Source: Gemmatimonadota bacterium
GTDB lineage: Bacteria; Gemmatimonadota; Gemmatimonadetes; JACCXV01; JAHWKZ01
NCBI GenBank assembly: GCA_035711625.1
Contig: DASTCA010000022.1
Location: forward strand, 21,039 to 85,038
Reading direction: 5' to 3'
Length of the DNA: 64,000 nucleotides
Program-made: the position numbers and the translations under genes
Part shown: positions 5,750 to 46,394 of the stretch, in pieces
Layout: each line of letters opens with the position of its first letter
Numbering within the stretch: the first letter of the stretch is position 1
The notes under the pieces: generated by a model
The model's input: the letters and a program-made list of their open reading frames with translations, nothing else
The model's database searches: none
Told to the model about the DNA's origin: nothing

Positions 5750-5953
5750 GGAAACGGGATGTACCCTTCCGATGTGCGCCGGATCCTCCGGCCACGCTAG
5801 GTTGTTCTCCATGAACCGGCGCTGCGCGGCGTACTACCTCGGCGACCTCGGTGCGGACGGACCCTCTCCCGAGGAGATCGTGGCGCGGTTCGCTGTGGCT
5901 GGAAGCGGCGAGTGGCCGACGGCCACCGGCGCAAGAGCCAGGGAGACACGGCC

Positions 5954-10249: not shown

Positions 10250-11254
10250 ATGACGTCGCGAATCCTGCTCATCGACGACACCCCGGCCACCATCGAAGCG
10301 ATCGCCGCCACCTTGCGGCAGGAGGGCTATAAGGTCAGCGTCGCGACCAGCGGTGAGCAGGGGCTGGACGTTCTCGAGCGCTTTCGCCCGGACCTGATCC
10401 TCCTCGACGTGATGATGCCCGGGATGGACGGTTTCGAAACCTGCGCCCGGATCAAGGCGGCCCCCGAGTGGGCAGAGATCCCGGTGGTCTTCCTCACGGC
10501 CAGGGGCGATCCGGACGACATCGTCCATGGCTTCGAGGCGGGCGCGGTGGATTACGTGTCGAAGCCTTTCAATGCGCACGAGTTGCTCGCGCGTGTGAGA
10601 ACCCATCTGACGCTCGACCAGCTCTATCGCGAGAATCAACGTCTCCTGCTCAACGTGCTGCCCGCGCCGATCGCCGAGAAGCTGAAGAAACAGACCGGTA
10701 TCATCGCCGACCGATACGATGACGTATCGGTTCTCTTCGGGGACCTCGTGGGGTTCACACCGCTCTCGGCGACGTTATCCCCGACCGACCTGCTGGAGCT
10801 CCTGAACCGTGTGTTCTCCGGATTCGACCTGCTGGCCAGCCAACGGGGTCTCGAGAAGATCAAGACCATCGGAGACGCCTACATGGTCGCGGGCGGCCTT
10901 CCCGAGCCACGGCCCGGTCACCTCGCGCTGATGGCCGAGCTCGCCCTGGACATGCAGGCCAGCATGGCACCGTTCAAGGCGAAGTACGACGGTCTCAGCC
11001 TGCGCATCGGGCTCCACGTCGGCAGCGCCATCGCCGGGGTCATCGGGATACGCAAGTTCATCTACGACGTCTGGGGCGATACCGTGAACACGGCCAGCCG
11101 ATTGGAGTCCCACGGCATCCCGGGCCGCGTCCAGGTCAGCGACACGGTGTACGAGCGGCTCCGGACTCGCTTCGATTTCGAGCCGCGCGGGGTCGTGGAT
11201 CTGAAGGGGAAGGGCCCGATGATGACCTACCTGCTAATCGGAGCGCGGGGTTAG
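10250..11254 (+). CDS. response regulator with class III adenylate cyclase output (REC–CHD)
   Basis: ATG 4 nt after the HK stop. REC (LLIDDTP...LLDVMMPGMDGFE...K). CHD with intact catalytic set: FGDLVGFT (metal Asp), KTIGDAYMV (adenine-specifying Lys and second Asp), GDTVNTASRLES (transition-state Asn and Arg). Confidence 0.85.
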   Translation: MTSRILLIDDTPATIEAIAATLRQEGYKVSVATSGEQGLDVLERFRPDLILLDVMMPGMDGFETCARIKAAPEWAEIPVVFLTARGDPDDIVHGFEAGAVDYVSKPFNAHELLARVRTHLTLDQLYRENQRLLLNVLPAPIAEKLKKQTGIIADRYDDVSVLFGDLVGFTPLSATLSPTDLLELLNRVFSGFDLLASQRGLEKIKTIGDAYMVAGGLPEPRPGHLALMAELALDMQASMAPFKAKYDGLSLRIGLHVGSAIAGVIGIRKFIYDVWGDTVNTASRLESHGIPGRVQVSDTVYERLRTRFDFEPRGVVDLKGKGPMMTYLLIGARG

Positions 11255-15388: not shown

Positions 15389-16369
15389 TCAGCCCTGGCC
15401 CCGAGTCCGCAGCGCCCGAGCGGTTTCGCCCACTCGGAGCGACGCGTCGAAGATGCGCCCCACGCGGATCCCGCCCGGAAGGCGATGGCGGCCGAGAGCG
15501 TGGAGGCCGATTGACGCAACGCAGCCGCAGTTGGCGCAGTCCGGCTTCCCGCCGAACTGACACGGCGTCACGCGGGTCTCGAGGTCCGCGGAGAGGCACC
15601 GGGTCACGCGCGCGAAGACGCACTCGCTCGGGTCGCGGGGAGGCTCCAGATAGGCATCCAGCATCCCGCGGTTGGCGAGCAGTTTCGGAAACCGCCGTCG
15701 GATGGCGTCCAGCTCCGCGACCGCCTTGCGTCGCATGGCCGGCGACAGGATCTCCTCGCACGACTCCCCCACCTGAGGAGTGAAGAAGCTGATCCGAATC
15801 GACTTCACCTCCGGGCGCTCGCTCCATGTCCGCACGAACTCCGTGAGGTAGCCGTCGCGACGGGTCATCTGGCTCGTAACCGTGCAATGGACGATGATCC
15901 GGTGACCCTCGATGTTGGCGAGGATTCGCTCGTAGGTGGCGGGTTTCCGGCGAACGTCGTGCTCGGGCTGGAGCCCGTCGATGGAGACCACGACCGTGAG
16001 ATCCTCGATGTGGGCCCAGGCGGGCGGGATGCGACGGACCGCGCTCGTCACGACCTCGACACGGACTCCGCGGTCCGCCAGCTGCGGAAGCAGCACGTCC
16101 AGTTCCCGAAAGCGAACCAGGGGCTCGCCGCCCACGATGTGGACGATCAATGGACGCTGGCGGTCGACCAGCTCGAGGATCCCTTCGACGAGGGCAGGGC
16201 CTGTTCGATCCGCCAGCGATGTGAGGGGGACACCGTCCAGGTGCTCGGGCTGGTAGGCGTAGCAGCCCGGACAGGAGAGGGGGCAGCGGGTCGTGATCTC
16301 GATGGAGAGGGACGGAGCGTATCCGCGGAGGATCCGCGTCCAAGCCCGTACGACGTGAATACGATGCAC
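15389..16369 (-). CDS. radical SAM protein, HpnH-like (C-terminal Cys cluster)
   Basis: CxxxCxxC (TTRCPLSCPGCY). GGEPL glycine-rich SAM motif. VSIDG. C-terminal CQFGGKPDCANCGC cluster resembling the CANC-containing tail of HpnH-type enzymes rather than a canonical SPASM CX2CX5CX3C. Confidence 0.75.
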   Translation of the reverse strand: MHRIHVVRAWTRILRGYAPSLSIEITTRCPLSCPGCYAYQPEHLDGVPLTSLADRTGPALVEGILELVDRQRPLIVHIVGGEPLVRFRELDVLLPQLADRGVRVEVVTSAVRRIPPAWAHIEDLTVVVSIDGLQPEHDVRRKPATYERILANIEGHRIIVHCTVTSQMTRRDGYLTEFVRTWSERPEVKSIRISFFTPQVGESCEEILSPAMRRKAVAELDAIRRRFPKLLANRGMLDAYLEPPRDPSECVFARVTRCLSADLETRVTPCQFGGKPDCANCGCVASIGLHALGRHRLPGGIRVGRIFDASLRVGETARALRTRGQG

Positions 16370-21799: not shown

Positions 21800-22789
21800 A
21801 TGGACTTCGTGGGATCGAGCGGACCGCCTGTGATCGTACTCGGCGTTTGGCGGAGCGGGACAGCGCTCCTCAAGGAGATCCTCGACCACCATTCCCAGAT
21901 CGCCATCCCCGGGGAATCGTATTTCCTGCCCGCGCTCTGGGTGCGTTACCGCGCCAAGCCGGACATCGGAAGCCTTCTGGAAGACATCGACTGCGTTCCG
22001 CAGGTGCGCGAGTGGGGCGTGAGATCTCGCGATCTCCGGGCGTGCCTGCCCGATCGGCCCATGTTCCCCGACGTCGTCCGGGCCCTATACGAGCGGTACG
22101 CCCACAGTCGCGGCAAGCCGCGGTTCGGCGATAGGACGCCGCACTACATGCGGCATCTGGACCTGCTCGAGCACGCCTTCTCGCGTCCGCGGTATGTTCA
22201 CATCGTGCGGGACGGACGCGACGCCGCCCTCTCTTTCGCAGCGATGCGCGCAAATCCCCGACCCCCGTGGATCTGGCCGCGCGGGATTGCCGACTACGCG
22301 TGCCGCTGGCGCCACGAAGTCGAAGCCGCCCGCGAACTGGGAGCGAGTGTGGGGCCGCAACGATACTTTGAGCTGCGGTACGAGGACCTGATCGCGCGCC
22401 CCGAGGCGGTCGTGCGCGACGTTTGCGCCTTCCTGGACCTGATGTTCGAAGCCGCGATGCTGGACTATTACCGCGACCGTGACCTCGCGATCGATCCGAA
22501 CCATGCACGACTGGCCGAGCCCGTTTCCCCAGCCCTCAGGAACTGGCGCGAGCAGATGTCGCCTTCCGACGCGCGGCGCTTCGAGACGATCGCTGGACCA
22601 CTGCTCGGGGATCTCGGTTACGAGCGCACAACCCTTCCGTCGAAGAGGGACCGGGTCCGAAGCCTCTTCGATCGCGTGGTCTCCCGAGGCCGCATCGCCA
22701 CCGGTCTTCCCGTCCCGCTCTTTCGCCGCTCCTTCCTCTGGCCGATCAGGCAGAAGCGTCAGCTCCGCCGGGCGGGATACCATGTGTGA
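21800..22789 (+). CDS. sulfotransferase-family protein
   Basis: PAPS 5'-phosphosulfate-binding loop (VLGVWRSGTALL) and 3'-phosphate-binding region (HIVRDGRD). Confidence 0.6.
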   Translation: MDFVGSSGPPVIVLGVWRSGTALLKEILDHHSQIAIPGESYFLPALWVRYRAKPDIGSLLEDIDCVPQVREWGVRSRDLRACLPDRPMFPDVVRALYERYAHSRGKPRFGDRTPHYMRHLDLLEHAFSRPRYVHIVRDGRDAALSFAAMRANPRPPWIWPRGIADYACRWRHEVEAARELGASVGPQRYFELRYEDLIARPEAVVRDVCAFLDLMFEAAMLDYYRDRDLAIDPNHARLAEPVSPALRNWREQMSPSDARRFETIAGPLLGDLGYERTTLPSKRDRVRSLFDRVVSRGRIATGLPVPLFRRSFLWPIRQKRQLRRAGYHV

Positions 22790-28888: not shown

Positions 28889-29125
28889 CGCTTCCTCCCT
28901 GTGCAAGTTCCTCCCATTCCTCCATCTTGACGCGTCGCGCGGACTCGCGCCAGCAAGTCGATCACTCACCGCGAGGTGCGATGGGAGCGGTCCGATTCCG
29001 GCTGTCGGCCTTGATGCTCCTGCGTACTTCGTGCGGGACGGGTGGTTCGTGATCCTCAGCACATCCCTCGACGCTCCGCCACATGCCCACGCCGGGAGCC
29101 TGTATCATGGGATGACGGGGCCCCG

Positions 29126-31117
29126 ATGACCCAGCGAACCTATCGCCTGGCGGCTGTCTGCTTCGCGGACATCGCGGGCTACACCGAGCTCTCCGCGAGG
29201 AACGAGGGCGAAGCAGTGGCGGTGGTCGAGCTGCTCCAGGAGGTGGCGCTCCGGGCCGTCGGAGAGCGCGGAGGCCGCGTCGTCAAGTTCATCGGCGATG
29301 CCGTCCTGGCCGAGTTCACGAGCACGGACGATGCCGTGCGGTCGGCGATCGAGATGCGGGACCGTTTCGCGGCGGAGGCTCGCACGCGTGGGTTTGGTAC
29401 CCGCGACGTTCGCGTCGGCGTGCATCTCGGCGACATCGTGACGGCGGCGGACGGGGACGTCTACGGCGACGGCATCAACGTCGCCGCGCGCATCCAGGGG
29501 GCGGCCGAGCCCGGACACGTGTGGGTGAGCGAGGACGTGTGGCGCCAGCTGCGACAGCGTCCGGAGTTCCAGTTCGAGTCGCGAGGCGAGCACGCGCTCA
29601 AGGGCGTAGCCACGCCGGTAGGATTGTATGGCGTGCGATTGGAGCCGTCCGCCCGCGCCGCCGTACCTCCTCGTCCCGCGGCGAAGGCGGAAGCAAAGAC
29701 CGCTCCCCACAAGCAGTCGGTGGCGGTCCTTCCGTTTGCGAACATGAGCGCGAACGCCGAGAACGAGTACTTCTCGGACGGCGTCACCGAGGAGATCCTT
29801 ACCCTGCTCGCCCGCATCGAAGGCCTCAAGGTGATCAGCCGGACCTCGATCATGCGCTACAAGGGAGCCGACAAGCCGATGCGCCAGATCGCCGAAGAGC
29901 TGGGCGTCGCCTCCATCGTGGAAGGGAGCGTCCGGCAGGCGGGGCAGCGCGTGCGGATCACGGCCCAGCTGATCGACGCCGCGACCGATGAGCATCTGTG
30001 GGCCGATCGGTACGACCGCGACCTCGAGGACATCTTCGCCATCCAGACCGACGTCGCCGAGCGGATCGTCGAGGCGCTGCGCGTGCGGCTGACTCCGAAA
30101 GAGCAGGCGCGGCTCGTCGAGCGCCCGACGGAGAACGTGGAGGCCTACCAGTCGTACCTGAAGGGCCGTCACTTCCTGAGTCGGCGGACGGAGGCGACGC
30201 TCCGGCAGGCGATCGAGTGGTTCCGGAAGGCGGTGGCGGCGGACCCCGGGTTCGCGCAGGCCTGGGCCGGGCTGGCGGACACCTTCGCGGTGCTGCCGAG
30301 TTACAGCCCGATGCCGGTGCCGGAGGCGTGCGCCGAAGGGCGCTCGGCCGCTGAGCGCGCTCTGGCGCTCGACCCCGCGCTGGGTGAGGTGCACGCGGCT
30401 CTCGGTTTCTTGGCCCAGAATGAGTCGAACTGGGAGGAGGCGGAGCGTGAATTCCGCTGCGCGCTCGAGCTAGCGCCCGGATACGCCACCGCGTACCACT
30501 GGTACGGGAACTTCCTGTCATCGCGCGGCCGGACGGAGGAGGCGCTGGCGGCGCTCCGTCGTGCGCTCGAGCTCGATCCGGTGTCGCTGCCGGTTCACAT
30601 GGCCGTGGGGGTCGCCCTCCATTTCGACCGTCGGTTCGACGAGGCGATCGACGTGTGCCGCAAGGCGATCGAGATGGATCCGGGCTACACCAACGCCCAC
30701 CAGAACCTCGCCAACTCGTATCTCTGTCAGGGGCGCTACGAGGAGGCCCTGACCGAGTGGGAGATCATCTCTGAACTGAATCCCGCGAGATTTCCGCCCG
30801 AGCTGTTGTCGGAGATCCGGGCAGGCCATGCGTCGGACGGGGAGCGCGGGTTCTGGGAGGCGGTTCTCGAGGGGTTGCGGTCGCGGCCCAAGGCGCTGGG
30901 CCGGGCCTACGACATGCCCCAGGCCTGCGCCCAGCTCGGAAGGATCGACGAGGCGTTCGCCTTGATCGACGTGCTCCTGGTCGAGCGAAGCGCGATCGCG
31001 ATTCAGGTTCCGCGCGATCCGCTGTTCGATCCGATCCGCACCGATCCCCGCTACGAGAAGGTCCTGGAGCGGCTGGGGCTCGGGGCTGACGGATCGCGCG
31101 GCATCAGCCGCCGCTGA
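29126..31117 (+). CDS. class III adenylate/guanylate cyclase (CHD) fused to TolB-like and TPR domains, cytoplasmic
   Basis: ATG at 29126. CHD motifs FADIAGYT, KFIGDAVLA, GDGINVAARI. Then a region like the N-terminal domain of TolB, seen in other TPR-type cyclases (VAVLPFANMS...GLKVISRTS...IVEGSVR). Then multiple TPRs (AIEWFRKAVAADPGFAQAW, etc.). No TM helix. Confidence 0.75.
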   Translation: MTQRTYRLAAVCFADIAGYTELSARNEGEAVAVVELLQEVALRAVGERGGRVVKFIGDAVLAEFTSTDDAVRSAIEMRDRFAAEARTRGFGTRDVRVGVHLGDIVTAADGDVYGDGINVAARIQGAAEPGHVWVSEDVWRQLRQRPEFQFESRGEHALKGVATPVGLYGVRLEPSARAAVPPRPAAKAEAKTAPHKQSVAVLPFANMSANAENEYFSDGVTEEILTLLARIEGLKVISRTSIMRYKGADKPMRQIAEELGVASIVEGSVRQAGQRVRITAQLIDAATDEHLWADRYDRDLEDIFAIQTDVAERIVEALRVRLTPKEQARLVERPTENVEAYQSYLKGRHFLSRRTEATLRQAIEWFRKAVAADPGFAQAWAGLADTFAVLPSYSPMPVPEACAEGRSAAERALALDPALGEVHAALGFLAQNESNWEEAEREFRCALELAPGYATAYHWYGNFLSSRGRTEEALAALRRALELDPVSLPVHMAVGVALHFDRRFDEAIDVCRKAIEMDPGYTNAHQNLANSYLCQGRYEEALTEWEIISELNPARFPPELLSEIRAGHASDGERGFWEAVLEGLRSRPKALGRAYDMPQACAQLGRIDEAFALIDVLLVERSAIAIQVPRDPLFDPIRTDPRYEKVLERLGLGADGSRGISRR

Positions 31118-31394
31118 CCGCCTGGACGATCGTCAGGCGATCGCCCGCGGACAGCGGGAGCTCTGGCCGCGGAGCCCGAGGTACGAGCCGGTCGTTGTGA
31201 AGGACGAGGACATGCGGTCGCAGCTCACCCGCTTCCGTGAACACGTGGGTCGCGAGCACGGGCCACCGGTTCCGGATCGCGGCGAACGCGGTCCCCAGGC
31301 GGTCCGCCTCGATCTCGACGGCGGAGCGGCCGTCCGTGCAGTCGCGAAGCATGCGGGGCAGCTCCAGCGTCACTCGACCCATCGGTCCCCTCAT
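31104..31394 (-). CDS. MoaD/ThiS-family ubiquitin-like sulfur-carrier protein
   Basis: ATG at 31394 overlaps the BNR gene stop (ATGA). 96 aa ending ...LSAGDRLTIVQAVSGG, which matches the MoaD/ThiS/CysO C-terminal pattern (..DGDE..I.PPVSGG). An alternative start at 31382 gives 92 aa. Confidence 0.6.
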   Translation of the reverse strand: MRGPMGRVTLELPRMLRDCTDGRSAVEIEADRLGTAFAAIRNRWPVLATHVFTEAGELRPHVLVLHNDRLVPRAPRPELPLSAGDRLTIVQAVSGG

Positions 31395-32500
31395 GCATAC
31401 GCCGCGGCGCGGACGCAGAGGACGCGGGGAAGACGCGCCGGGAGTCGTCGCCAATCGTCGCCCGCGTCCGCGGACGCGAACACGTCGCCGCCCGTCGTGC
31501 CGAAGTAGACTCCGGTCGGCGCGCGCCCGTCGAGCGCCATCGCGTCGCGGAGGACGCCGGTGAAAACCGGCTCCTCGGCGCCGACGGCATCCCGCCGCTG
31601 CCACGACTCGCCTGCGTCCTTCGATCGCCAGACCGCCGGACGCCCGCCGTCGAAGACCCGGTTCTCGTCGGAGACGAGCGGGGCGACGAACAGCTCGCCT
31701 TCCGGCGACAGGACCATGGGGAAGCCGAAGCGGTGCGGGAGCTCGCGGTCGATCGCCGTCCATGTGCGTCCGGCGTCGTCGCTCCGGAAGACGCCGCTCG
31801 ACCGCTTGCCGTCGGGAGTCATCGTGTGGGCGTGGAACTGCATGAATAGGCGGTCCCTGCGCGTCTCGTCGAGGACGATCTTATGGATGCAGAACATGGC
31901 GTCCTCGTCGGGCGACCCGGTCATCGTCATCGGGGGGAGCCCCTCGTTCCACGCCTCCCACGTCTCGCCGCCGTCCGTGGTGCCGAAGACCCCGACCGCG
32001 CTGATCGCGACCCACATCCGACGCGGGTCGTGGGGATCGACGAGGATGGAATGGAGGCAGAGTCCGCCGTTCCCGGGATGCCAATGGGGGCGGGAAGGGT
32101 GTCGCGTGAGCGCGTCGATCTCCCGCCACGAAGCGCCGTCGTCGTCGCTCGCGTAGAGCGCGGCGTCGGCCACGCCGGCGTAGAGTTGTCCGCGTCCGGT
32201 TCCGCGCGCGAGCTGCCAGATTCGAGTCAGCGGATGCTCGGCGGGTTCGTCGGGGGGGCGCAACGGCGTCTGAGTCCACGTCGCGCCCGCGTCGCGGGTC
32301 TCGCGGATCGTGGCGCCAAACGCCTCGTGCGAGGTGCCGACGTGGAGTCGATCCGGATCCGCGGGATCGGGGAGGATCGCGTCGACTCGCCACTCCGGCA
32401 GAAGTGGCTCTCCGATCCGCCACGACCGGCGCCCGTCGTCGGACTGAAACCGATACGCGCCCTTCACCGTACCCACCCACAAGACCACTGGCTCGGCCAT
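31391..32500 (-). CDS. BNR/sialidase-like beta-propeller protein (Ycf48-like fold)
   Basis: ATG at 32500 after AGGAGGAG. Repeated S-x-D-x-G-x-T-W BNR motifs (SDDGRRSW, DAGATW, DDGASW, DGGETW, DDAGRTW, KDAGESW). Confidence 0.65.
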   Translation of the reverse strand: MAEPVVLWVGTVKGAYRFQSDDGRRSWRIGEPLLPEWRVDAILPDPADPDRLHVGTSHEAFGATIRETRDAGATWTQTPLRPPDEPAEHPLTRIWQLARGTGRGQLYAGVADAALYASDDDGASWREIDALTRHPSRPHWHPGNGGLCLHSILVDPHDPRRMWVAISAVGVFGTTDGGETWEAWNEGLPPMTMTGSPDEDAMFCIHKIVLDETRRDRLFMQFHAHTMTPDGKRSSGVFRSDDAGRTWTAIDRELPHRFGFPMVLSPEGELFVAPLVSDENRVFDGGRPAVWRSKDAGESWQRRDAVGAEEPVFTGVLRDAMALDGRAPTGVYFGTTGGDVFASADAGDDWRRLPARLPRVLCVRAAAYA

Positions 32501-32659
32501 CGTGACTCCTCCTCGGGTTCAGAGAATCCACCGCGGAGCGTACCGGACCCGCCGGACGACCGTCAAGCGATGCGGCTTTGCAACCCTCCGACCGCCGGGA
32601 CGATCCCAGAGGTAGAACGCCGGCCACATCGCCGAACCCGGATCGCTGGAGGCAGCTCG

Positions 32660-35422
32660 ATGGCTCGCTGGACGCTCGCACTCGCCGCGCTCCTGCTCCT
32701 GGCGGGCTCCCTACGGGCCCAGACCGCGGAGCCGGCCCCGCCCGCCTCTGCGAATGGAGCCGGCGAGGTCCTTGCCCAGGCCACTCCGGCCGCCGGGACG
32801 GCCGACCACGAACGCCTCGCGCCGGTCGCGCAGGCGATCCGGCTGACCGGGCCGATCGACGTGGACGGCGAGCTGGACGAGCCGATCTGGCAGAGCGCGC
32901 CGGCCGTCACCCGGTTCTTCCAGCGCGAGCCGAACCAGGGCTCTCCGGCGACCCAGCCGACCGAGGTACGGTTCCTGTACGACGACGAGACCCTGTACAT
33001 CGGCGCCCGGATGTTCGATTCCCTCGGGGCGGACGGCGTCGTCGGACGGCTCGCGCGGCGGGACTCCGACCCCCCGGGGGACCGCCTCACGATCACGTTC
33101 GACACGTTCCTGGACCATCTCGGCCAGACCCAGTTCACCGTGAACCCGACCGAGACGCGGGTCGACGCGTACGGGCCCGGCGGGTCGAACCTGGACTTCT
33201 CGTGGAACCCGGTGTGGAACGCCGAGGCGGAGATCGATTCGCTCGGATGGACCGCGGAGCTGGCGATCCCGTTCGCCCAGCTGCGGTTCCCGCGCGGCGC
33301 GGAGCAGACGTGGGGGCTCCAGATCGAGCGCGAGGTGAGCCGCCTGAACGAGTTCCAGGTGTTCTCGTTCTGGACCCTCGACCAGCAGGGCGGGCCGTCC
33401 CGGTACGGCCATCTGACGGGTCTGGAGATCCCCAACGCGAGCCCCAACCGCCTCGAGCTGCTCCCATACGTTGTCGCGCAGCTCGAGACGAAGGCGGAGG
33501 TCGACGCGTTCGACCCGTTCGCGCAGGACCGCGAGCAGGACTACCGCGTGGGCGCGGACCTGAAGTACCTGCTGACGTCGAACCTGACGGTGTCCGCGAC
33601 CGTGAACCCGGATTTCGGCCAGGCCGAGGTCGACCCCGCGGTCGTGAACCTCACCGCATTCGAGACGTTCTTTCCCGAGAAGCGCGAGTTCTTCATCGAG
33701 GGGAGCGGGCTGTTCAGCTACGGCGGATTGTGGTGCTTCACGTGCAGCAACATCTCGTCGATGGATCTCCTGTTCACGCGTCGGATCGGCCGCACGCCGC
33801 AAGGCGGGAACCTGGCGTTCCAGGGGGCGGACTACGCGGACGTTCCCGACGCGACGACGATCCTCGGGGCCGCGAAGCTGACCGGGCGAACGCGGAGCGG
33901 AACGTCGCTCGGGATCCTGGGCGCGGTGACGGAGCGCGAGCTGGCGGCGACCGAGACCCTCGAGGGTGAGCGGTCGGAGGCGGAGGTCGAGCCCCTGACG
34001 GGATACCTCGCCGCGCGCGCGCAGCACGACCTGCGGAACGGGGACCTGCAGATCGGCGGCATCGTGACGTCCGTGACGCGGAGCTTCGACGATCCCGACC
34101 TCGAGGACCTGATTCCGAGCCACGCCGAGGCGTTCGGCGCCGACGCGGAGCTGTGGTGGGCCGACCACACCTATCACTACCTGGGGAACGCGGCGATCTC
34201 CAACGTCGCCGGCGATCCCGACGCGATGCGGCGCATCCAGGAATCCAGCGCGCGGTACTTTCAGCGGCCGGATCGGGAGCACGGATCGAACGGGCTGTTC
34301 ACCGACCGCTACGATCCCACGCTGGAGGCGATCCGCGGGTGGGCGATGTACCACCGGGTAGCCAAGGAGGCCGGCGCGTGGCGCTGGGAGAGCTCCCTGG
34401 CCGCGCGGAGCCCGGGATTCGAGATCAACGACCTGGGCTTCCAGACCCGCACGGACTGGTTGTGGCTGCACGGGAACATCCAGCGCCGGTGGACCGAGCC
34501 GACCAGCAAGTACCGGTACCTCCAGGTGAACGTCGGCGCCCAGAACCGCACCAACTGGGACGGTGACCTCGAGGAGCGGCAGCTCCACTTCAGCGTCTAT
34601 TCCGAGCTGCCCAACTATTGGGAGATCAGTCAGTTCAACCTCATCCGCCCGTCGGCATTCGACCCCCGCGCCACTCGCGGCGGACCTGTCGTCAAGTCGC
34701 CGGGGCACGGTTTCCACAGCCTGTACATGGCCACGGACTCGCGAAAGCGGTTCGTGGCGTCGCTCGAGCCGACCTACACGTGGATCGAGGAAGGATACCG
34801 GGAGTACGCGCTCTTCTTGAACTTCACGTTCAAGCCGGCCTCGAACATTTCATTGTCGCTCGGGCCGTACTTCGAGCACGGCGAATCTTCGGCGCAGTAC
34901 GTGACGACGGTCGCGGATGCGACCGCGGAGGTGTTCTACGGAAGCCGGTACGTGTTCTCCGATCTCGATCAGAACACGTTCTCGATGGACACGCGTCTCG
35001 ATTGGACGTTCACGCCGACGATGTCGCTGGAGCTCTTCCTGCAGCCCTTCTTCTCGAGCAACGACTTCTCGCGCTTCAAGGAATTCGCCGAGCCGCGGAC
35101 GCTGGACAAACTGGTCTATGGCGAGGACATGGGGACGATCGCTCTGAACGAGGGCGTCTATGCGGTCGATCCGGACGCCGCCGGCCCGGCCGCGACGTTC
35201 ACCTTTGACGACCCCAATTTCAGCTTCGCATCGTTGCGCGGAAACCTCGTCTATCGGTGGGAGTACGTCCCGGGGTCGACCCTGTTCGTCGTCTGGACGC
35301 AGGACCGCAACAACGAGCTCGCCGAAGGTGATTTCGATCTGGGACGCGACGTCGACGACCTGTTCGGTACCGGTTCCGACAACGTGTTCCTGGTCAAGCT
35401 CACGTACTGGCTGGGCATCTAG
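32660..35422 (+). CDS. DUF5916-family outer-membrane protein with N-terminal CBM9-like domain
   Basis: ATG at 32660 (MARWTLALAALLLLAGSLRAQ signal). GPIDVDGELDEPIWQSA...F.Q.EP resembles the CBM9-like module of DUF5916 proteins. The rest is beta-rich with a C-terminal aromatic residue (LTYWLGI). The track ORF adds 259 spurious N-terminal codons. Confidence 0.5.
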   Translation: MARWTLALAALLLLAGSLRAQTAEPAPPASANGAGEVLAQATPAAGTADHERLAPVAQAIRLTGPIDVDGELDEPIWQSAPAVTRFFQREPNQGSPATQPTEVRFLYDDETLYIGARMFDSLGADGVVGRLARRDSDPPGDRLTITFDTFLDHLGQTQFTVNPTETRVDAYGPGGSNLDFSWNPVWNAEAEIDSLGWTAELAIPFAQLRFPRGAEQTWGLQIEREVSRLNEFQVFSFWTLDQQGGPSRYGHLTGLEIPNASPNRLELLPYVVAQLETKAEVDAFDPFAQDREQDYRVGADLKYLLTSNLTVSATVNPDFGQAEVDPAVVNLTAFETFFPEKREFFIEGSGLFSYGGLWCFTCSNISSMDLLFTRRIGRTPQGGNLAFQGADYADVPDATTILGAAKLTGRTRSGTSLGILGAVTERELAATETLEGERSEAEVEPLTGYLAARAQHDLRNGDLQIGGIVTSVTRSFDDPDLEDLIPSHAEAFGADAELWWADHTYHYLGNAAISNVAGDPDAMRRIQESSARYFQRPDREHGSNGLFTDRYDPTLEAIRGWAMYHRVAKEAGAWRWESSLAARSPGFEINDLGFQTRTDWLWLHGNIQRRWTEPTSKYRYLQVNVGAQNRTNWDGDLEERQLHFSVYSELPNYWEISQFNLIRPSAFDPRATRGGPVVKSPGHGFHSLYMATDSRKRFVASLEPTYTWIEEGYREYALFLNFTFKPASNISLSLGPYFEHGESSAQYVTTVADATAEVFYGSRYVFSDLDQNTFSMDTRLDWTFTPTMSLELFLQPFFSSNDFSRFKEFAEPRTLDKLVYGEDMGTIALNEGVYAVDPDAAGPAATFTFDDPNFSFASLRGNLVYRWEYVPGSTLFVVWTQDRNNELAEGDFDLGRDVDDLFGTGSDNVFLVKLTYWLGI

Positions 35423-36899: not shown

Positions 36900-39485
36900 C
36901 TAGCCGCGCGGCGCCATCCCGAGGGCGGCGAGTCGCTGGCGCACCTCGGCCACGCGCGGCGCGTACTCCGGATCCGCATCCGCCCACGCGATGAGGGCGA
37001 GCTCGTATGCCCGCCGCGCGTCGTCCCGGCGTCCCGCCTCCTCATAGGCCCGCCCCAGCGCGGACAGCCCGACCGGTCCGAACGAGCTCCCCAGGGACTC
37101 CAGGTAGCGGATCGCGTCCTCGTGCCGGCCGGTCTCGCTGGCGATCCCCGCCAGCCACCACCGGATCCAGCGGTTGATCACCGGCCCCGCGACCTGCACC
37201 CGGGCCTCGTCGAGCGCGGCGCGCGCCCGCTCCGGATCGCCGCGTCGCCAGGCGGCGTACCCTTCCAGCGCGTCCGCCACGGCCCCTAGGCTCCGCGCCC
37301 GCAGCGAGTCGCCTTCCGCGGCGCGCGCGCGAGAGGCCTCCCGGAAGGTCTGCACCCCGCGCCGGAACTCCTCGTCGCGCCCGGCGTCGTGACTCCAGGC
37401 CGCGATCGAGAACGTCGCGAGATCGGGTCGCGGCTCCTCGGGCAGGACGAGGATGCCGCCGAACTCGTCCTCCTCGATCGGCAGCCCGTTGATCCACGCC
37501 ACCGCCGCCATGGAGACGCGATCGCCCGGCAGCACGGCCGGGTCGTCCAGCAGCTCGCGGCAGGCGGCGACCTTGCCGGTCAGGGTCTGGTTCAGGAACA
37601 GCTGGAACAGCGCCTGGCTCCGCTCCTCGTCATCGATGTCGCGCGCGAGGAGCGCGCGGATCGCCGTCTCCTGTCCGCGCAGGTGAAACGGCGTGTTCAG
37701 CGTCCCCACGACCTTGCATTGGAAGCAGCTCACGTTCAGGGTGTCGAGCGCCGCCATCGCCCGCTCGCGGACGTCGGGCGACCCGAACGCGAGCGCGAAG
37801 TCGATCCCGAAGACGACGTCGTCCTCGGACCCCGCGGCGTGCTCGCGGAACCGGGCCAGCAGATCGGCCACCTGCGCGCTGTCCCCCTCGAGGAACGCGA
37901 GGTCGATCGGGTGCAGGTAGGCGGGCGTGAAGCGGGGATCCAGATCGATCGCGCGGAAGAACGCGCGTGTGGACTCCTCCTCCGGGATCAGGTGGCGGCT
38001 GCCGTCGTGATAGAGGACTTCGCCGAGGTGGTTCCACGCGTCGACATCGTCCGGGTAGCGATCCACCAGATCGCGCGCGAACTCGATCGTCTCGGGCGAG
38101 CCCTGGAACCACAGGTCCTCGCCCTCGATGAGCCTCCGCTCGCGCTCGGGCAGCCTGTCCGCGTGCCGGCGCGCGGCCTCGGCCTCGAGGTTCGGAAGGT
38201 CGCCGAACTGGGTCTCCGACCACCAGCTGTACGTCTGGCTAAGCCGCAGGTGGGCGAGCGCGAAGGTGCTGTCGGCCTCGACGGCGGCCTTGTAGGCGAC
38301 GACCGCGTTCGGCCAGTCCGAGCGGCGGAAGTGGCCTTCCCCCTCGAGATACGACTTGAGCGCAGGGATCGAGGCGGTCGTGACGCGGCTCAGGTTCAGC
38401 GCGGGAAGCCCACCCTCGCCTTCCTCCAGCAATGCGCTCAGGAGGTCGATGGAGAGCCGATCGACGAGCACGAACAGGCTGTCGGGGGACCCCTCCGCCT
38501 GCGCATGGCCGACGGACTCGCCGCGGGCGACGTCGTACAGGTCGGCGGTCAATCGCATCCCCGGACCGATCGTCACTATGTCTCCTGCGACCGCGTAGCG
38601 GGCCCCCGTCTTTCCCGCAACATCCAGCAGCGTGGCGAGGTCCGCGCGCCGGCCCTCGGGGACGGACTCCGACCAGCGCGCGAGCACCGTCCGGTTGTCG
38701 ATCGCGCGGAAGCCGCCCGCGCCGTCCAGGTTCGTCGCCAGCAGGTCGACCATCCCCTCGCGCCACTGGTCGAGGGCGGGATCGTTCACCGTGAACGGAA
38801 GCACCGCGATCCCCGGCGCTGCGCTCTCCGCGATCGCCGGGCCGGGCGAGATGCGCCGCATTCCCCAACGCCCGCCGACGACGAGAACGACGACCAGGCC
38901 GATCAGGGCGAGGACACCGACGGCGAGAACCCCCACCTGGCGCGTGCTCATCTCCGGGATCCAGCGGCCCGTGCGGAACCCGGGCCCCGGCGGCAGCTCG
39001 GAGAGCGCGTAGAGCCGCCACATTCCGGGCACTCCCTTGAGCTCCCGCTCGCCCCGGTCCTCGAACTTGAATCCCGCCCCGACCAGGAGCTCCCGCACCG
39101 TGCTCGAGACCAGGATCTCGCCCGGAGCCGCGGCGGCCGCCACGCGCGCGCCGATGTGGACGCCGAGTCCACCCAGGTCGCGCCCCTTGCCGTCGACCTC
39201 GCCGGCGTGCACCCCGCTCCGGATCTCGAGACCCAGGTCCTTCATCGCGTCCCGGATGGCGTCCGCGCAGCGGATCGCGGTGGCGGGGCGGTCGAAGACG
39301 GCCATGAAGCCGTCGCCGGCCGTGTTCGCTTCGCGACCGCCGAACCGGCGCAGCTCGCGCCGGACGCGCACGTGATGCGCCGCTAACAGCTTTCGCCACT
39401 CGTGATCGCCGAGGTCGGCCGCGCGCCGAGTCGAGTCGACGATGTCGGTGAACAGGATCGCGGTGAGAGAGCGGCGGGGCTGCAT
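36900..39485 (-). CDS. membrane-anchored class III cyclase-homology protein with periplasmic TolB-like and TPR region
   Basis: ATG at 39485 (MQPRRSLTAILFTDIVDST). CHD with FTDIVDST and TAGDGFMAV, but His replaces the transition-state Asn (GVHIGARV). One TM helix (VGVLAVGVLALIGLVVVLVV), then a long periplasmic TPR-containing region. Starts 4 nt after the MCO stop. The track ORF adds 57 N-terminal codons. Confidence 0.7.
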   Translation of the reverse strand: MQPRRSLTAILFTDIVDSTRRAADLGDHEWRKLLAAHHVRVRRELRRFGGREANTAGDGFMAVFDRPATAIRCADAIRDAMKDLGLEIRSGVHAGEVDGKGRDLGGLGVHIGARVAAAAAPGEILVSSTVRELLVGAGFKFEDRGERELKGVPGMWRLYALSELPPGPGFRTGRWIPEMSTRQVGVLAVGVLALIGLVVVLVVGGRWGMRRISPGPAIAESAAPGIAVLPFTVNDPALDQWREGMVDLLATNLDGAGGFRAIDNRTVLARWSESVPEGRRADLATLLDVAGKTGARYAVAGDIVTIGPGMRLTADLYDVARGESVGHAQAEGSPDSLFVLVDRLSIDLLSALLEEGEGGLPALNLSRVTTASIPALKSYLEGEGHFRRSDWPNAVVAYKAAVEADSTFALAHLRLSQTYSWWSETQFGDLPNLEAEAARRHADRLPERERRLIEGEDLWFQGSPETIEFARDLVDRYPDDVDAWNHLGEVLYHDGSRHLIPEEESTRAFFRAIDLDPRFTPAYLHPIDLAFLEGDSAQVADLLARFREHAAGSEDDVVFGIDFALAFGSPDVRERAMAALDTLNVSCFQCKVVGTLNTPFHLRGQETAIRALLARDIDDEERSQALFQLFLNQTLTGKVAACRELLDDPAVLPGDRVSMAAVAWINGLPIEEDEFGGILVLPEEPRPDLATFSIAAWSHDAGRDEEFRRGVQTFREASRARAAEGDSLRARSLGAVADALEGYAAWRRGDPERARAALDEARVQVAGPVINRWIRWWLAGIASETGRHEDAIRYLESLGSSFGPVGLSALGRAYEEAGRRDDARRAYELALIAWADADPEYAPRVAEVRQRLAALGMAPRG

Positions 39486-39489
39486 CGGC

Positions 39490-41478
39490 TTACGGGCTGG
39501 CGGAGGCTGTTTCGGCGACCACGTCGATTTTCTGCTCGACGAACCGCTCGCCGACGAACGATCGTGCCTCGAGGCGGTACTCGCCGGGCTCGGTGGGGCG
39601 GAACTCGAAGTCCATCGTCTCACCCACGCTGACGACCCGATCGGCGAGATCGACACGCCGCTGGGAGCGGGGAAGATCGGCCCCGTCCTTGGCGACCGCG
39701 CGCCAGAATACCGGGAAGCCGTCCCGGACGAGCCGGATCCGCGCCTGCGCGTTGAACAGCGTGATGTTCATGAAGCGGAAGCGGTACGTCGTGCCGGCTC
39801 GGAGCGTGATCGGGTCGGGAGCCAGGGAGCCGTTCAGGAGCGGGGACATGTCGGGATCCGAGCCCGTGCTCAAGAGGACCACGCGGTCGGTTTCTGGATT
39901 CCATTCCGCGCCCGCGGGCAGGACGACGAAGCCACCGTACAAGCCTGCGCTCTGCTGTCGGATGTCGTTGAAGTGGGTGTGATACATGTAGCTCCCCGCG
40001 CGCGGAGGCGTGATCCGCATTTCGAACGAGTCGCCCGGCATGATGGCGGGCGTCGTCGCGCCCTGGTAGCCGCCGATCCCGACCACGCCGTCGAAATAGC
40101 TGTCGATCTCGAGTCCGTGCCAATGGACCTGTGTGGGCTCGTCCAACCGGTTGATCACCTTCACGCCGGTCGGCTCCCCGACCCAGGTCACCAGTGTCGG
40201 CCCGGGCCATGCCACGGGCCCCGGTGGCGGCTCGCCGTTCTCTCCCCCGAGCGCGAACCCGAAGCGGCGACGCTCCCCCGGAAGCGAATCGCTCTCGACG
40301 AAGAGCCGAAGCCGAAGCCGCGGCTCGACGGCGTGCGAGTACCCCGCGGGCGCTCGCACCGTGACCCCGATCAACAAGCCGCCCATCCCGTCGACGACGT
40401 GATGGTGGGGATCTTCGGAATGGACGCCGTGGAGGAGAGCGTCGTCGCGCGCGGCCCCGTCGGCGTAATCCCCCGGGAGGGCATTGGGGACGACGTGATA
40501 GCTGATGTGACAGGGGAACGGCCATCCGCCGGGGCGGTCCGCGTGCCACGAGATGTCGGCCGTCTGCCCGATCCCGACGAGGTGCGTGGCGTTCAGGCGA
40601 CGCTCTCCCGGCCAGAGGCGGTTCGCGCGCTGGATGTCGCCCAGGGCGTCGACGCCGAAGAAGAAGCCGTGCAGATGCATCGGATGAACGCGGTCGGTCA
40701 GATTGATGATCCGCCAGCGGACGGAATCCCCGAGCTCGTACTCGAGCCGCTCCGTCAGCGGCCACGGCCGGCCGTTGATCGCCATCGTCTCGGTCTGCCA
40801 GTCGAGCTCCTCGCCCGCCGGCGGACGCTCGAACCAGACCGACATGATCATGATCTCGTCGTGAGTGGGAGGCGTCCCCGCCGGGTCCACGATCAGCGCG
40901 CCGCCGAGCTGGCTGTCTTCGAACAGCCGGGAGTCGGGGGCCTCGAAGACGAGCCGGGACCCGGTCGTCGTCCCCCAGTAGAAGTACGTGCCTTCGACGT
41001 CGGCCACGAAGCGCGTCTCACGCTCTTCGCCGGCCGGCACGACGAGCGAATCCATATCGGCGACGCGGCGGGCCGCGAGGCCGTAGACGACGAGCGGGAC
41101 GTTGAGCGGATTGGCGATCGTGACCCGGATCTCGGTGCCGAGCGGGACGCGGATCAGCGGGCCGGGATTCTCGGGGTCCCGCCCGATCTCGCGGAAGGCG
41201 AGAACCTCGACGCCGGGACGGTCGTCTCCTAGGTAGCGCCATTCCCCTCGGACGACCTCCATGCGGAGCGTGAGGACCCTCTCCGAGAGCGCTCCCGCCG
41301 GGCGATCGTTGTCGTTCCAGCGAATCCGGGGGAGATCATCGCGTGCGAAGCCTGCCGGGAAACTGAGGAAAACCAGGGCGAGGACGGCGAAGGCCTGAGC
41401 GCACGAACGCGGGCGAAGCACGGGCGGCGCAGCTCCTTTTTTTGTCGGGGAGGAGACGGAGAATGGTACGCTCGCCAC
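39490..41478 (-). CDS. multicopper oxidase family protein
   Basis: Signal peptide. Copper-ligand motifs HPMHLHG, CHISYH, HWHG, YHTH, in an order that differs from the canonical 3-domain laccase/CueO arrangement. Confidence 0.7.
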   Translation of the reverse strand: MASVPFSVSSPTKKGAAPPVLRPRSCAQAFAVLALVFLSFPAGFARDDLPRIRWNDNDRPAGALSERVLTLRMEVVRGEWRYLGDDRPGVEVLAFREIGRDPENPGPLIRVPLGTEIRVTIANPLNVPLVVYGLAARRVADMDSLVVPAGEERETRFVADVEGTYFYWGTTTGSRLVFEAPDSRLFEDSQLGGALIVDPAGTPPTHDEIMIMSVWFERPPAGEELDWQTETMAINGRPWPLTERLEYELGDSVRWRIINLTDRVHPMHLHGFFFGVDALGDIQRANRLWPGERRLNATHLVGIGQTADISWHADRPGGWPFPCHISYHVVPNALPGDYADGAARDDALLHGVHSEDPHHHVVDGMGGLLIGVTVRAPAGYSHAVEPRLRLRLFVESDSLPGERRRFGFALGGENGEPPPGPVAWPGPTLVTWVGEPTGVKVINRLDEPTQVHWHGLEIDSYFDGVVGIGGYQGATTPAIMPGDSFEMRITPPRAGSYMYHTHFNDIRQQSAGLYGGFVVLPAGAEWNPETDRVVLLSTGSDPDMSPLLNGSLAPDPITLRAGTTYRFRFMNITLFNAQARIRLVRDGFPVFWRAVAKDGADLPRSQRRVDLADRVVSVGETMDFEFRPTEPGEYRLEARSFVGERFVEQKIDVVAETASASP

Positions 41479-44802: not shown

Positions 44803-45783
44803 TCAGTCGGGGAGGATCTGCTCCCAGGCCGTGCCGTCCCATTCCCACACGTCGGCATACGTCTCGCCGGCGTGGAACCCACCGAACAGCACGACCCGTT
44901 GGCGCACGGGATCGTAGGCCATCTCGTGGACGTTCAGGAGCCCCGGGCCCTCGACGTCGCGCCGGGTCCAGGCGGCGCCGTCCCAGATCCAGGTGTCGTC
45001 GAAGTCCCCCGCGTCGCCGCGGCCGCCGAAGAGGACGATCTCGCCGCGCCCCGCATCGAACGCCATCCGCGACGCGAACCGGGGCGCGGGGCCGGGGGCG
45101 TCCGCGCCGATCTCCGTCCAGGCCGTACCGTCCCAGGTCCACGTGTCGGCGAGAAGCCCGTCCGCGCCCCAGCCGCCGAACAGGACGAGGACCCTCCGCC
45201 GGTCGTCCCAGACGAGGCGGTGGGTTGCGCGCGCGGGCGGGCCGTCGGACGCGACCTGGCGCCAGCTATCGCCGTCCCAGGACCAGGTGTCGGCCAGGAG
45301 AGTCTGGTCCGGCCTTCCGCCCCCGAACAAAACGACTACCTCCCGCTCGGGGTCGTACGCCATCGCAGTGTGATCGCGCACCCCGGGGCCTTCCGAGGCG
45401 ATGGCGCGCCAGACCGATCCGTCCCACTCCCAGGTGTCTCCGTGGCGGAGCGGATCCCTGGTCCGGTCGGGATACGCGGTCAGGCCGCCGTGCAGAACCA
45501 GCCGGTCACGGCCGGCGTCGTACGCAAATCCGAAGTGGCCGCGATCTCCCGGTCCGATCGTGTCGAGGACGGACCAGTTCACTCCATCCCACGCCCACAT
45601 CCACTGCCCGCGGGATACGGCCTCCACGCCTCCCAGGAGGACGACCTGCTCGAGGCCGGCGTGCCATGCCATCGCGTGCGAGGAGCGGGGCGCGGGCCAC
45701 GGCGTCTCCTGCGCCGCTCCCCGCGAAGGCGCGAGGGAGAGGAGAAACGCGGGCAGGAGAATAGATCGGGTCGGGACGCGCAT
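44803..45783 (-). CDS. Kelch-repeat beta-propeller protein
   Basis: ATG at 45783 (MRVPTRSILL signal). At least six repeats, each with a VLFGG / W.WDG.W pattern (DTWEWDG, DTWSWDG, DTWTWDG, DTWIWDG, DVWEWDG). Confidence 0.6.
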   Translation of the reverse strand: MRVPTRSILLPAFLLSLAPSRGAAQETPWPAPRSSHAMAWHAGLEQVVLLGGVEAVSRGQWMWAWDGVNWSVLDTIGPGDRGHFGFAYDAGRDRLVLHGGLTAYPDRTRDPLRHGDTWEWDGSVWRAIASEGPGVRDHTAMAYDPEREVVVLFGGGRPDQTLLADTWSWDGDSWRQVASDGPPARATHRLVWDDRRRVLVLFGGWGADGLLADTWTWDGTAWTEIGADAPGPAPRFASRMAFDAGRGEIVLFGGRGDAGDFDDTWIWDGAAWTRRDVEGPGLLNVHEMAYDPVRQRVVLFGGFHAGETYADVWEWDGTAWEQILPD

Positions 45784-45878
45784 CGTCCCCAGTCGGACGG
45801 AGGCGATGCGCGGGTCGTTCAAGCTCCGCGGCCGCGCGCTTGGGCGGCGCGGTGCCCCGGCGCTATGATCGGGGGCCA

Positions 45879-46394
45879 ATGAACGGAGACCGATCCCGTA
45901 TCGCGCGCCGAGGCGCGCTCGCATTCGCTCTCGCTGTGTGCGGATGCGCGGCGCTCGAGTCGCTCGGGATCCTGGCGCCCCGGTTCGAATCCGCAGAGGG
46001 CCGGAGCGCGGAGCTCCGCGTGCTCGGGCCGGCGGCGGACCGGCCGCTCGGCGGCGCCGCCCTCCGCCTCTGGGCGCACGTCGAGAACCCGAACGGTTTC
46101 GGACTGCGGCTGACCGAGGTGGTTGGCGACCTTCGAGTGGCCGACGCGGACGCGATCGACGTGGAGTTCCCGCTCGGCCTGCCGCTCGTCGCGTTTCAGG
46201 ACACGGTAGTCCCGCTCGACGTATCGATCGGATTCGACGATCTCCCGAGCTTGGGGCGGATCGCGCGTGCCGCGATCTCCGGCGAGCGCCTCGACTACAG
46301 GCTGGACGGGACGTTCGCCGTGGACGCCGGCAGCTACGGCGAACCGCGTTTCGGACCGTGGACTCTGCTCGAGGGAGAGCTCACGGTCCGGTGA
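45879..46394 (+). CDS. LEA14-like (WHy/LEA_2) lipoprotein
   Basis: ATG at 45879. Lipobox LAVCGC. LEA_2 signature (AHVENPNGFGLRL ... Y.LDG). The track ORF begins at an upstream TTG. Confidence 0.55.
   Translation: MNGDRSRIARRGALAFALAVCGCAALESLGILAPRFESAEGRSAELRVLGPAADRPLGGAALRLWAHVENPNGFGLRLTEVVGDLRVADADAIDVEFPLGLPLVAFQDTVVPLDVSIGFDDLPSLGRIARAAISGERLDYRLDGTFAVDAGSYGEPRFGPWTLLEGELTVR

Follow-up and report, generated by a model that had tools for sequence, protein, structure and literature searches.

What does a small sulfur-carrier-like protein do when its gene is followed by none of the usual partner enzymes and instead stands beside a gene for a beta-propeller? This question is raised by a 64,000-nucleotide stretch of Gemmatimonadota DNA (contig DASTCA010000022.1, positions 21,039 to 85,038), hereafter the window. 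An earlier note, made from the letters alone, had described a propeller gene of the BNR/sialidase-like kind and a gene for a MoaD/ThiS-like carrier between positions 31104 and 32500, and both genes were found there, on the minus strand. Our analysis suggests that the pair is a sulfur-carrier system with a new partner fold. The features on which the argument draws are as follows.

31391..32500, minus strand: gene for a 369-residue seven-bladed Asp-box (BNR) propeller, predicted to be cytoplasmic, Reut_B4987/3b7f family, six Asp-boxes
31104..31382 including the stop codon, minus strand: gene for a 92-residue ThiS/MoaD/CysO/SAMP1-like beta-grasp carrier, assigned from Pfam ThiS, a homologue alignment, an AlphaFold2 (AF2) model and Foldseek
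31383..31394, minus strand: propeller-carrier junction with the propeller TGA (31393-31391), an overlapping upstream ATG and a GAGGGG run, read from the sequence
32501..32659, no strand assigned: propeller/DUF5916 intergenic region of 159 bp, with a ribosome-binding site and the presumed operon promoter

The conservation of the pair was examined in 84 non-redundant loci, assembled from the 80 that a one-genome-per-species scan returned from many phyla and from loci already collected. The 80 genome loci were the best-scoring of at least 584 candidates found with two peptide patterns, one of which contains C148 of the propeller, so that the family is sampled with a bias; for the calling of flanking genes, a simple heuristic of length and GC content at third codon positions was used. 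In this gene-neighbourhood survey, which the earlier note had proposed, an open reading frame (ORF) of 88-121 residues ending in Gly-Gly (GG) was present directly downstream of the propeller gene, on the same strand, in 72 of 84 loci from at least 15 phyla. One of the 72 (L041), with an ORF that ends otherwise than in GG, was counted by the carrier profile alone. Propeller and carrier genes are separated by -4 nucleotides (ATGA) in 32 of 71 loci and by at most 30 nucleotides in 64 of 71. Viewed from the carrier side, every context examined had a propeller gene directly upstream, and the small protein was not found beside moaE or thiG, as the earlier note had considered for a relocated housekeeping copy. 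These contexts comprised carriers 72%, 48% and 40% identical to that of the window (the latter two being the most distant carrier matches), one locus found through its propeller at 58% identity, and two carriers of a divergent second type. The pairwise identities among carriers correlated with those among propellers (r = 0.95, a value reached by 0 of 2000 Mantel permutations), which shows that the pair has been passed on, and has diverged, as one unit.

The association also survives rearrangement. In Ralstonia solanacearum, Burkholderia, Mitsuaria, Pseudomonas aeruginosa and Cupriavidus metallidurans (L091-L095), the order is swapped and the carrier comes first; the propellers of this more distant Burkholderiales/Pseudomonas branch match at 29-32% identity, and the genes are annotated as a "MoaD/ThiS family protein" directly upstream of an "exo-alpha-sialidase". 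The P. aeruginosa copy (L093; pZYPA1927, 4699-6095) lies five genes from pmpM and, judging from the position of pmpM, is probably PA1355/PA1356 of PAO1. Further, two natural fusions (P0341, 454 residues, and P0368, 453 residues) consist of an N-terminal ThiS domain, a linker of 8-13 residues and a full propeller, with ThiS domains that score 37 and 40 bits and end in ...AVSGG or ...AISGG. Because conserved adjacency, swapped order, fusion and co-variation combine, the two proteins would be expected to cooperate physically, and carrier and propeller are very probably functional partners.

Within the window, the carrier gene lies directly 3' of the propeller gene, its stop codon occupies 31104-31106, and the encoded protein ends in ...TIVQAVSGG. 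On the coding strand, the junction reads GCATGAGGGGACCGATGG, in which an ATG (31394-31392) overlaps the propeller TGA (31393-31391) in the form ATGA. This upstream, in-frame ATG is an alternative start that gives a carrier of 96 residues, the length reported in the earlier note. A second in-frame ATG (31382-31380), whose translation begins MGRVTLE..., follows 8 nucleotides past the propeller stop, and a GAGGGG Shine-Dalgarno-like run overlaps that stop, 4 nucleotides before this conserved ATG. Since the homologues are 92 residues long in nearly all of 79 clusters and align from the second Met, translation of the carrier probably starts at the second ATG, 12 nucleotides downstream of the ATGA overlap, and yields 92 rather than 96 residues. 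The overlap noted earlier therefore exists but is probably not the start that is used; the tight coupling of the two genes holds even with the second ATG. The propeller ATG is itself preceded, by 5 nucleotides, by a strong ribosome-binding site, GAGGAGGAG (32514-32506, minus strand). No site was found in a scan of 30800-33000 for sigma-70-type promoter and terminator consensus sequences, and the operon promoter is presumably within 32501-32659. GC fractions by codon position were 0.78/0.51/0.86 for the carrier and 0.71/0.54/0.86 for the propeller, in a sequence of 69% GC. The likeness of the two profiles, together with the 79 homologue clusters and the confident beta-grasp model, establishes the carrier as a real gene and not an artefact of high GC.

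The family assignment of the small protein stood up to profile and fold comparison. It matched Pfam ThiS (PF02597) with 31 bits, above the cut-off of 22.5, most of its homologue clusters also carry PF02597, and it fell below the cut-offs of the NCBIfam models for SAMP1 (NF041918, 42.5 vs 60), moaD_arch (TIGR01687, 35.8 vs 49.5) and ThiS (TIGR01683, 28 vs 37.45); no specific NCBIfam model exists for either carrier or propeller. The AF2 model is a beta-grasp fold with a predicted local distance difference test (pLDDT) score of 90.2 and a disordered tail. Foldseek template-modelling (TM) scores were 0.81 for SAMP1 (3po0), 0.81 for CysO (3dwg_C) and 0.58 for MoaD (1fm0_D), and further matches included the CysO-type partner of BexX (4n6e, TM 0.82), Urm1 and the Urm1-Ahp1 conjugate (7q5n). 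By sequence, CysO and SAMP1 are its best solved relatives. The carrier is thus a member of the ThiS/MoaD superfamily that stands outside every defined carrier equivalog.

The GG tail, whose possible absence in relatives had been raised in the earlier note, was conserved in all paired carriers (72 of 72). In 65 of them it forms the very end of the protein, and in the other 7 a further 1-7 residues come after it, as also occurs in carriers matured by a protease. The rest of the carrier has diverged into several types: that of the window ends in ...IVQAVSGG, a related type in ...HIIPAVSGG, and a 98-residue type II in ...VVGAMAGG. Type II had no Pfam or NCBIfam match and was aligned end to end with the window type only by profile-profile comparison (probability 77%, E 2e-5), and it is recognisable only through gene context, the GG end and that alignment. 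It is nevertheless the commonest carrier type: clustering at 90% identity gives at least 8,000 clusters, the top 120 of which are about 80% identical to each other. An example is L088:7104-7397, and it occurs in about 40 other loci (representatives P0200-P0319).

A clue to how the tail may be used came from the neighbouring genes. When the ORFs of the loci were clustered all against all, the only informative family apart from the two genes themselves and their shadow ORFs was a MoeB/MoeZ-type adenylyltransferase bearing a rhodanese domain at its C-terminus. This activating enzyme (E1), of a kind that the earlier note had not found adjacent in the window, adjoins the pair directly in 5 of 84 loci and in three arrangements, after the carrier, before the propeller or in divergent orientation, and it scored 530 bits to MoeB and 525 bits to MoeZ in NCBIfam. 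The 115 genes closest to the pair were also assigned to Pfam families; ThiF+Rhodanese ranked first in this census with 3 genes and every other family had at most 2. Among the 150 second- and third-nearest genes only generic families recurred, and no shared function emerged from the two sets beyond the E1-rhodanese. MoaE and JAMM did not recur among these 265 flanking genes, and neither the families listed in the census nor the contexts inspected one gene at a time included ThiG, CysM or PALP. In the window, no MoaE, ThiG, CysM or JAMM was seen among the 27 genes scanned, which are part of its genes, in line with the earlier note, which had found none of MoaE, E1 and JAMM adjacent.

These results bear on whether the carrier is simply a displaced housekeeping MoaD, ThiS or CysO, serving the synthesis of molybdopterin, thiamine or cysteine, that came to lie beside the propeller incidentally. 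Its membership of Pfam ThiS is what such a protein would have, and a possible partner for it is encoded in the window at 51215-52636 (plus strand). This gene, which the earlier note had pointed to some 20 kb away as a CBS-domain candidate, does encode a genuine PALP+CBS protein of the cystathionine beta-synthase type, but it shows no conserved association with the pair and cannot be regarded as a credible partner. The pairing in 72 of 84 loci, its spread over at least 15 phyla, the correlated divergence, the swapped order and the fusions all argue against an accidental neighbour, as do the lack of a flanking MoaE, the absence of PALP, ThiG and CysM noted above, and the moaD_arch and thiS scores below their equivalog cut-offs. 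We consider a displaced housekeeping carrier very improbable and rejected it as contradicted by the neighbourhood survey.

The same data were considered with regard to protein modification. The carrier might be a modifier of the SAMP/TtuB/Urm1 type that, once activated by an E1, is attached covalently to lysines, with the propeller as its main target, as a substrate adaptor, or as a metal-dependent isopeptidase or maturase that acts on the C-terminus of the carrier. SAMP1 gave the top NCBIfam score (42.5 bits), Urm1 and the Urm1-Ahp1 conjugate are among the Foldseek matches, and the residues past the GG in 7 of 72 carriers and in both fusions imply that some hydrolase must expose the GG; three-histidine sites, such as the candidate site in the propeller described below, are also typical of zinc hydrolases. 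However, the 65 carriers that already end in GG make a maturase unnecessary, the adjoining E1s have a rhodanese domain, which is a mark of sulfur transfer, and the SAMP1 score lies under the 60-bit cut-off. JAMM was not recurrent in the 265 flanking genes, with E2-like genes not specifically looked for, and PADLOC returned no match for carrier or propeller. A modifier role thus appears quite unlikely. The pair likewise does not belong with the bacterial ubiquitin-like (Ubl) conjugation and defence systems (E1-E2-JAB; Bil, CBASS Cap2/3), as there was no PADLOC match and no JAB family recurring among the neighbours, where no search was aimed at E2-like genes.

The propeller scored above the Pfam cut-offs of Sortilin-Vps10 (51 bits) and BNR (38 bits), and its AF2 model shows seven blades and six Asp-boxes, with a pLDDT of 92.9 and a predicted TM score (pTM) of 0.92. 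It matched Reut_B4987 (PDB 3b7f) over the full length in both sequence and fold. The structural matches that followed were single halves of GH74 xyloglucanases, then Ycf48, DAIP and generic propellers; the GH74 chains, of about 750 residues, align over one half only, with a target-normalised TM of about 0.3. The N-terminus leads directly into a beta-strand, from which the protein is predicted to have no signal peptide and to be cytoplasmic. A cytoplasmic location suits a partner of a cytoplasmic carrier and not a secreted glycosidase.

Among 88 propeller-family sequences, H150, H206, H223, W95, W140, F258, F260 and R318 were invariant (88 of 88), and C204 and Q221 (87 of 88 each), H134 (83 of 88) and C148 (78 of 88) were nearly so. 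They fall in the motifs GGLCLH, C-V-H-K/R, Q-x-H, FGFP and VLRDAM. The strand register was set by the Asp-boxes, which fall between the third and fourth strands of a blade, and it predicts that the conserved residues lie where the innermost strands of blades 2-6 begin and, in blade 4, in the B-C loop; in these positions they would encircle the top-face opening of the central channel. The top face is the usual active-site face of propeller enzymes. On this register, the three histidines, with the neighbouring Cys and Gln, look like a putative mononuclear metal site. An 11-residue insertion after QFH (HTMTPDGKRSS) was limited to the window's own Gemmatimonadota subclade, and it was therefore rejected as a mark of carrier-associated propellers.

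The residues also speak to the database label. Relatives carry the NCBI names "exo-alpha-sialidase" or "sialidase family protein", the fold is an Asp-box propeller and GH74 halves are the next best structural matches, all of which would fit a true exo-alpha-sialidase or other glycoside hydrolase with the carrier gene as an unrelated passenger. The profile and motif evidence argues otherwise: BNR_2 scored 30.6 against a cut-off of 31.4, no FRIP/RIP motif is present, and, instead of the Arg triad with Tyr and Glu of the GH33 sialidases, the protein conserves His, Cys, Gln, Trp, Phe and a single Arg. It has no predicted signal peptide, and its linkage to the carrier is too consistent for chance. 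GH74 was rejected on the basis of a single 369-residue propeller as opposed to two tandem seven-bladed ones, both of which are needed to form the GH74 catalytic cleft, and Ycf48/HCF136 on scores of 18.8 bits against 326 (NF010237) and 21.1 against 27 (PSII_BNR). The sialidase reading was rejected on profile, motif, residue and linkage evidence, and we give a true glycosidase scarcely any credence.

The observed folds, GG tail, conserved pairing, co-evolution, fusions and recurrent E1 form the ground for a scheme whose further elements are inferred, namely the thiocarboxylate, the way in which the carrier docks, the metal site and the direction in which sulfur moves. The C-terminal Gly-Gly of the 92-residue carrier would be adenylated and then thiocarboxylated by a MoeZ/MoeB-type E1-rhodanese, encoded elsewhere in this genome and adjoining the pair in some relatives. 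The carrier would dock on the cytoplasmic propeller, with its flexible GG tail entering the central pocket from the top face. The arrangement would parallel that of MoaD, ThiS and CysO, whose C-terminal tails enter MoaE, ThiG and CysM. There, H150, H206 and H223, with C204, Q221 and usually C148, would form the putative mononuclear metal site, and the propeller would accept sulfur from the thiocarboxylate, in a role like that of MoaE, ThiG, CysM or BexX. The sulfur might then pass to a small molecule, to the propeller's own cysteines as a persulfide, or to the metal centre. C-terminal activation of the carrier is rather likely; for the whole scheme of a thiocarboxylated carrier docking on a metal-dependent sulfur-acceptor propeller, we put the chances at about even.

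Several observations weigh against the sulfur-transfer scheme. An hmmsearch of the window with the MoeZ profile returned nothing at E <= 10. Twelve of the 84 loci, a Verrucomicrobiota clade of mostly Opitutaceae/Opitutales, have no adjacent carrier, and in one of them, a complete Horticoccus genome, the next gene is on the opposite strand. Propellers with no carrier adjacent, including some Streptomyces and Fuscovulum copies, keep every conserved residue, and so the propeller may work without a carrier. Propellers of the Burkholderiales type keep the histidines and the Gln and are without C148 and C204, from which it follows that these cysteines cannot be essential to a shared mechanism. In both fusions the GG is internal, and it is either cleaved or a free C-terminus is unneeded. 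A 704-residue protein (P0329) has a Ser/Thr kinase domain fused to a propeller of the same family, with the His, Gln and FGF motifs kept and Ala at the position of C148; this architecture hints that the propeller can act as a ligand-sensing domain, and it fits a ligand-binding domain as well as an enzyme. Finally, the solved relative Reut_B4987 was annotated by the Joint Center for Structural Genomics as a "putative glycosyl hydrolase with BNR repeats", function "not known" (PMC2716378).

Part of this evidence would be accommodated if the beta-grasp protein were a non-covalent subunit, chaperone or regulator that is never adenylated, and its GG tail plugged or gated the central channel of a ligand-binding or sensor propeller. 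The internal GG of the fusions, the sensor role suggested by the kinase-propeller fusion, the retention of all conserved residues in carrier-less propellers and the lack of a nearby E1 in most loci, the window included, are in its favour. On the other hand, the GG is invariant across carrier types so diverged that Pfam misses type II, which is hard to explain without chemistry at the C-terminus, and the sole recurrent neighbour is the E1-rhodanese. A purely structural or regulatory partner is therefore unlikely in our view.

Turning to the surroundings, the operon lies between a divergent DUF5916 gene on its upstream side and, downstream, a convergent adenylate-cyclase/TPR gene (29042-31117, plus strand), which overlaps the end of the carrier gene by 14 nucleotides. 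The nearest homologues of both proteins are in Gemmatimonadota metagenome bins, and a 616-kb relative has the same gene order as the window. The DUF5916 gene (about 32660-35422, plus strand) encodes a large protein with a signal-peptide-like start, MARWTLALAALLLLAG. Its divergent arrangement recurs in a Gemmatimonadota relative (L096), and another relative (L001) has a DUF5916 gene at a distance of a few kb; because it is absent from the loci in other phyla, the DUF5916 neighbourhood is lineage synteny and outside the module. The window contains three adenylate/guanylate cyclase genes (10250-11251, plus; 29042-31117, plus; 36900-39656, minus); a receiver domain is present in one and long TPR regions in two, and cyclase-TPR genes like these also flank the pair in L001. 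Other window genes, none of them linked to the pair, encode a Kelch-repeat propeller (44806-45924, minus), a sulfotransferase (21800-22786, plus) and a radical SAM protein (15392-16369, minus).

Among the relatives, genes of the DoxX/YciI families lie close to the pair, only a few genes away, in three unrelated loci (L001:13743-14060, L097:6328-7147 and L093:4016-4441), and VOC/glyoxalase, DJ-1, AhpCF and thioredoxin genes lie near individual other copies. None of DoxX, YciI, VOC/glyoxalase, DJ-1, AhpC and thioredoxin was enriched in the census. These neighbours may reflect a link to thiol or electrophile stress, and they could also be due to chance.

The closest parallels are CysO-CysM of Mycobacterium tuberculosis (3dwg), MoaD-MoaE and ThiS-ThiG, in which a GG-ended carrier of about 90 residues is likewise encoded beside, and translationally coupled to, the enzyme that uses its thiocarboxylate and is served by a MoeZ/MoeB E1-rhodanese often encoded elsewhere, as is proposed here. 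CysO is the best match of the window carrier in sequence and fold. Unlike CysM, MoaE and ThiG, which are a pyridoxal-phosphate enzyme, a hammerhead fold and a TIM barrel, respectively, the partner here is a seven-bladed Asp-box propeller. BexX, from 2-thiosugar biosynthesis in Amycolatopsis (4n6e), offers a further likeness, as it is a non-canonical acceptor enzyme supplied by a carrier of the same subfamily (TM 0.82) and a housekeeping E1, and the nearest characterised structural relatives of the present propeller bind carbohydrates. BexX differs in having the fold of a ThiG-like barrel and in being encoded within a biosynthetic gene cluster, whereas the pair stands alone in variable contexts. 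Within the family itself, the Reut_B4987 (3b7f) branch of the Burkholderiales differs from the window pair in its reversed gene order and in lacking C148 and C204.

The dual-function Ubls Urm1, SAMP and TtuB share with the carrier the beta-grasp fold, the GG end and, as proposed here, activation by an E1. The Urm1 thiocarboxylate persulfidates a cysteine of its target Ahp1, and by analogy C148 and C204 of the propeller could be persulfidated in the same way. What sets the pair apart from these Ubls is the lack of a linked tRNA thiolase, JAMM or E2, where no search was aimed at E2-like genes. Metal-containing seven-bladed propellers that handle sulfur are known in selenium-binding protein/methanethiol oxidase, thiocyanate dehydrogenase and the CuZ-bearing N2O reductase; they offer an analogy only, as they have no sequence relationship to this family, no Asp-boxes and no protein sulfur donor.

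The literature agrees with the earlier view that no module made up of a ubiquitin-like carrier and a propeller has been described. Two comparative-genomic surveys of prokaryotic beta-grasp and Ubl proteins from the Aravind laboratory (PMC1779556, PMC1949818) do not mention an association with BNR, sialidase or propeller proteins, and no description of the pair was found in the full-text literature, a search that left subscription journals mostly outside. The propeller profile detected about 4,250 clusters at 50% identity (E <= 1e-30), an upper bound that includes large multi-repeat BNR proteins. As the propellers bear the label of sialidases and neither Pfam nor NCBIfam detects the commonest carrier type, surveys of sulfur metabolism that depend on annotation miss the system altogether.

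The known sulfur carriers each define a pathway, namely those of molybdopterin, thiamine, cysteine, methionine, thiosugars, thioquinolobactin and tRNA thiolation. That a carrier should stay so closely tied, in many phyla, to a partner of a new kind implies that there is a sulfur-dependent product or modification that has not been looked for. We propose tentatively, and at somewhat short of even likelihood, that the pair is the core of a widespread, unrecognised enzyme class, in which a three-His metallo-propeller would take sulfur from a protein thiocarboxylate to make a thiol metabolite, a persulfide or a metal-sulfide centre. If this is true, the class would span Gemmatimonadota and Actinomycetota to P. 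aeruginosa and Ralstonia, with 3b7f as an already solved, uninterpreted structure of one of its members, and the pair is present in the genetically tractable P. aeruginosa, Ralstonia, Burkholderia and Cupriavidus.

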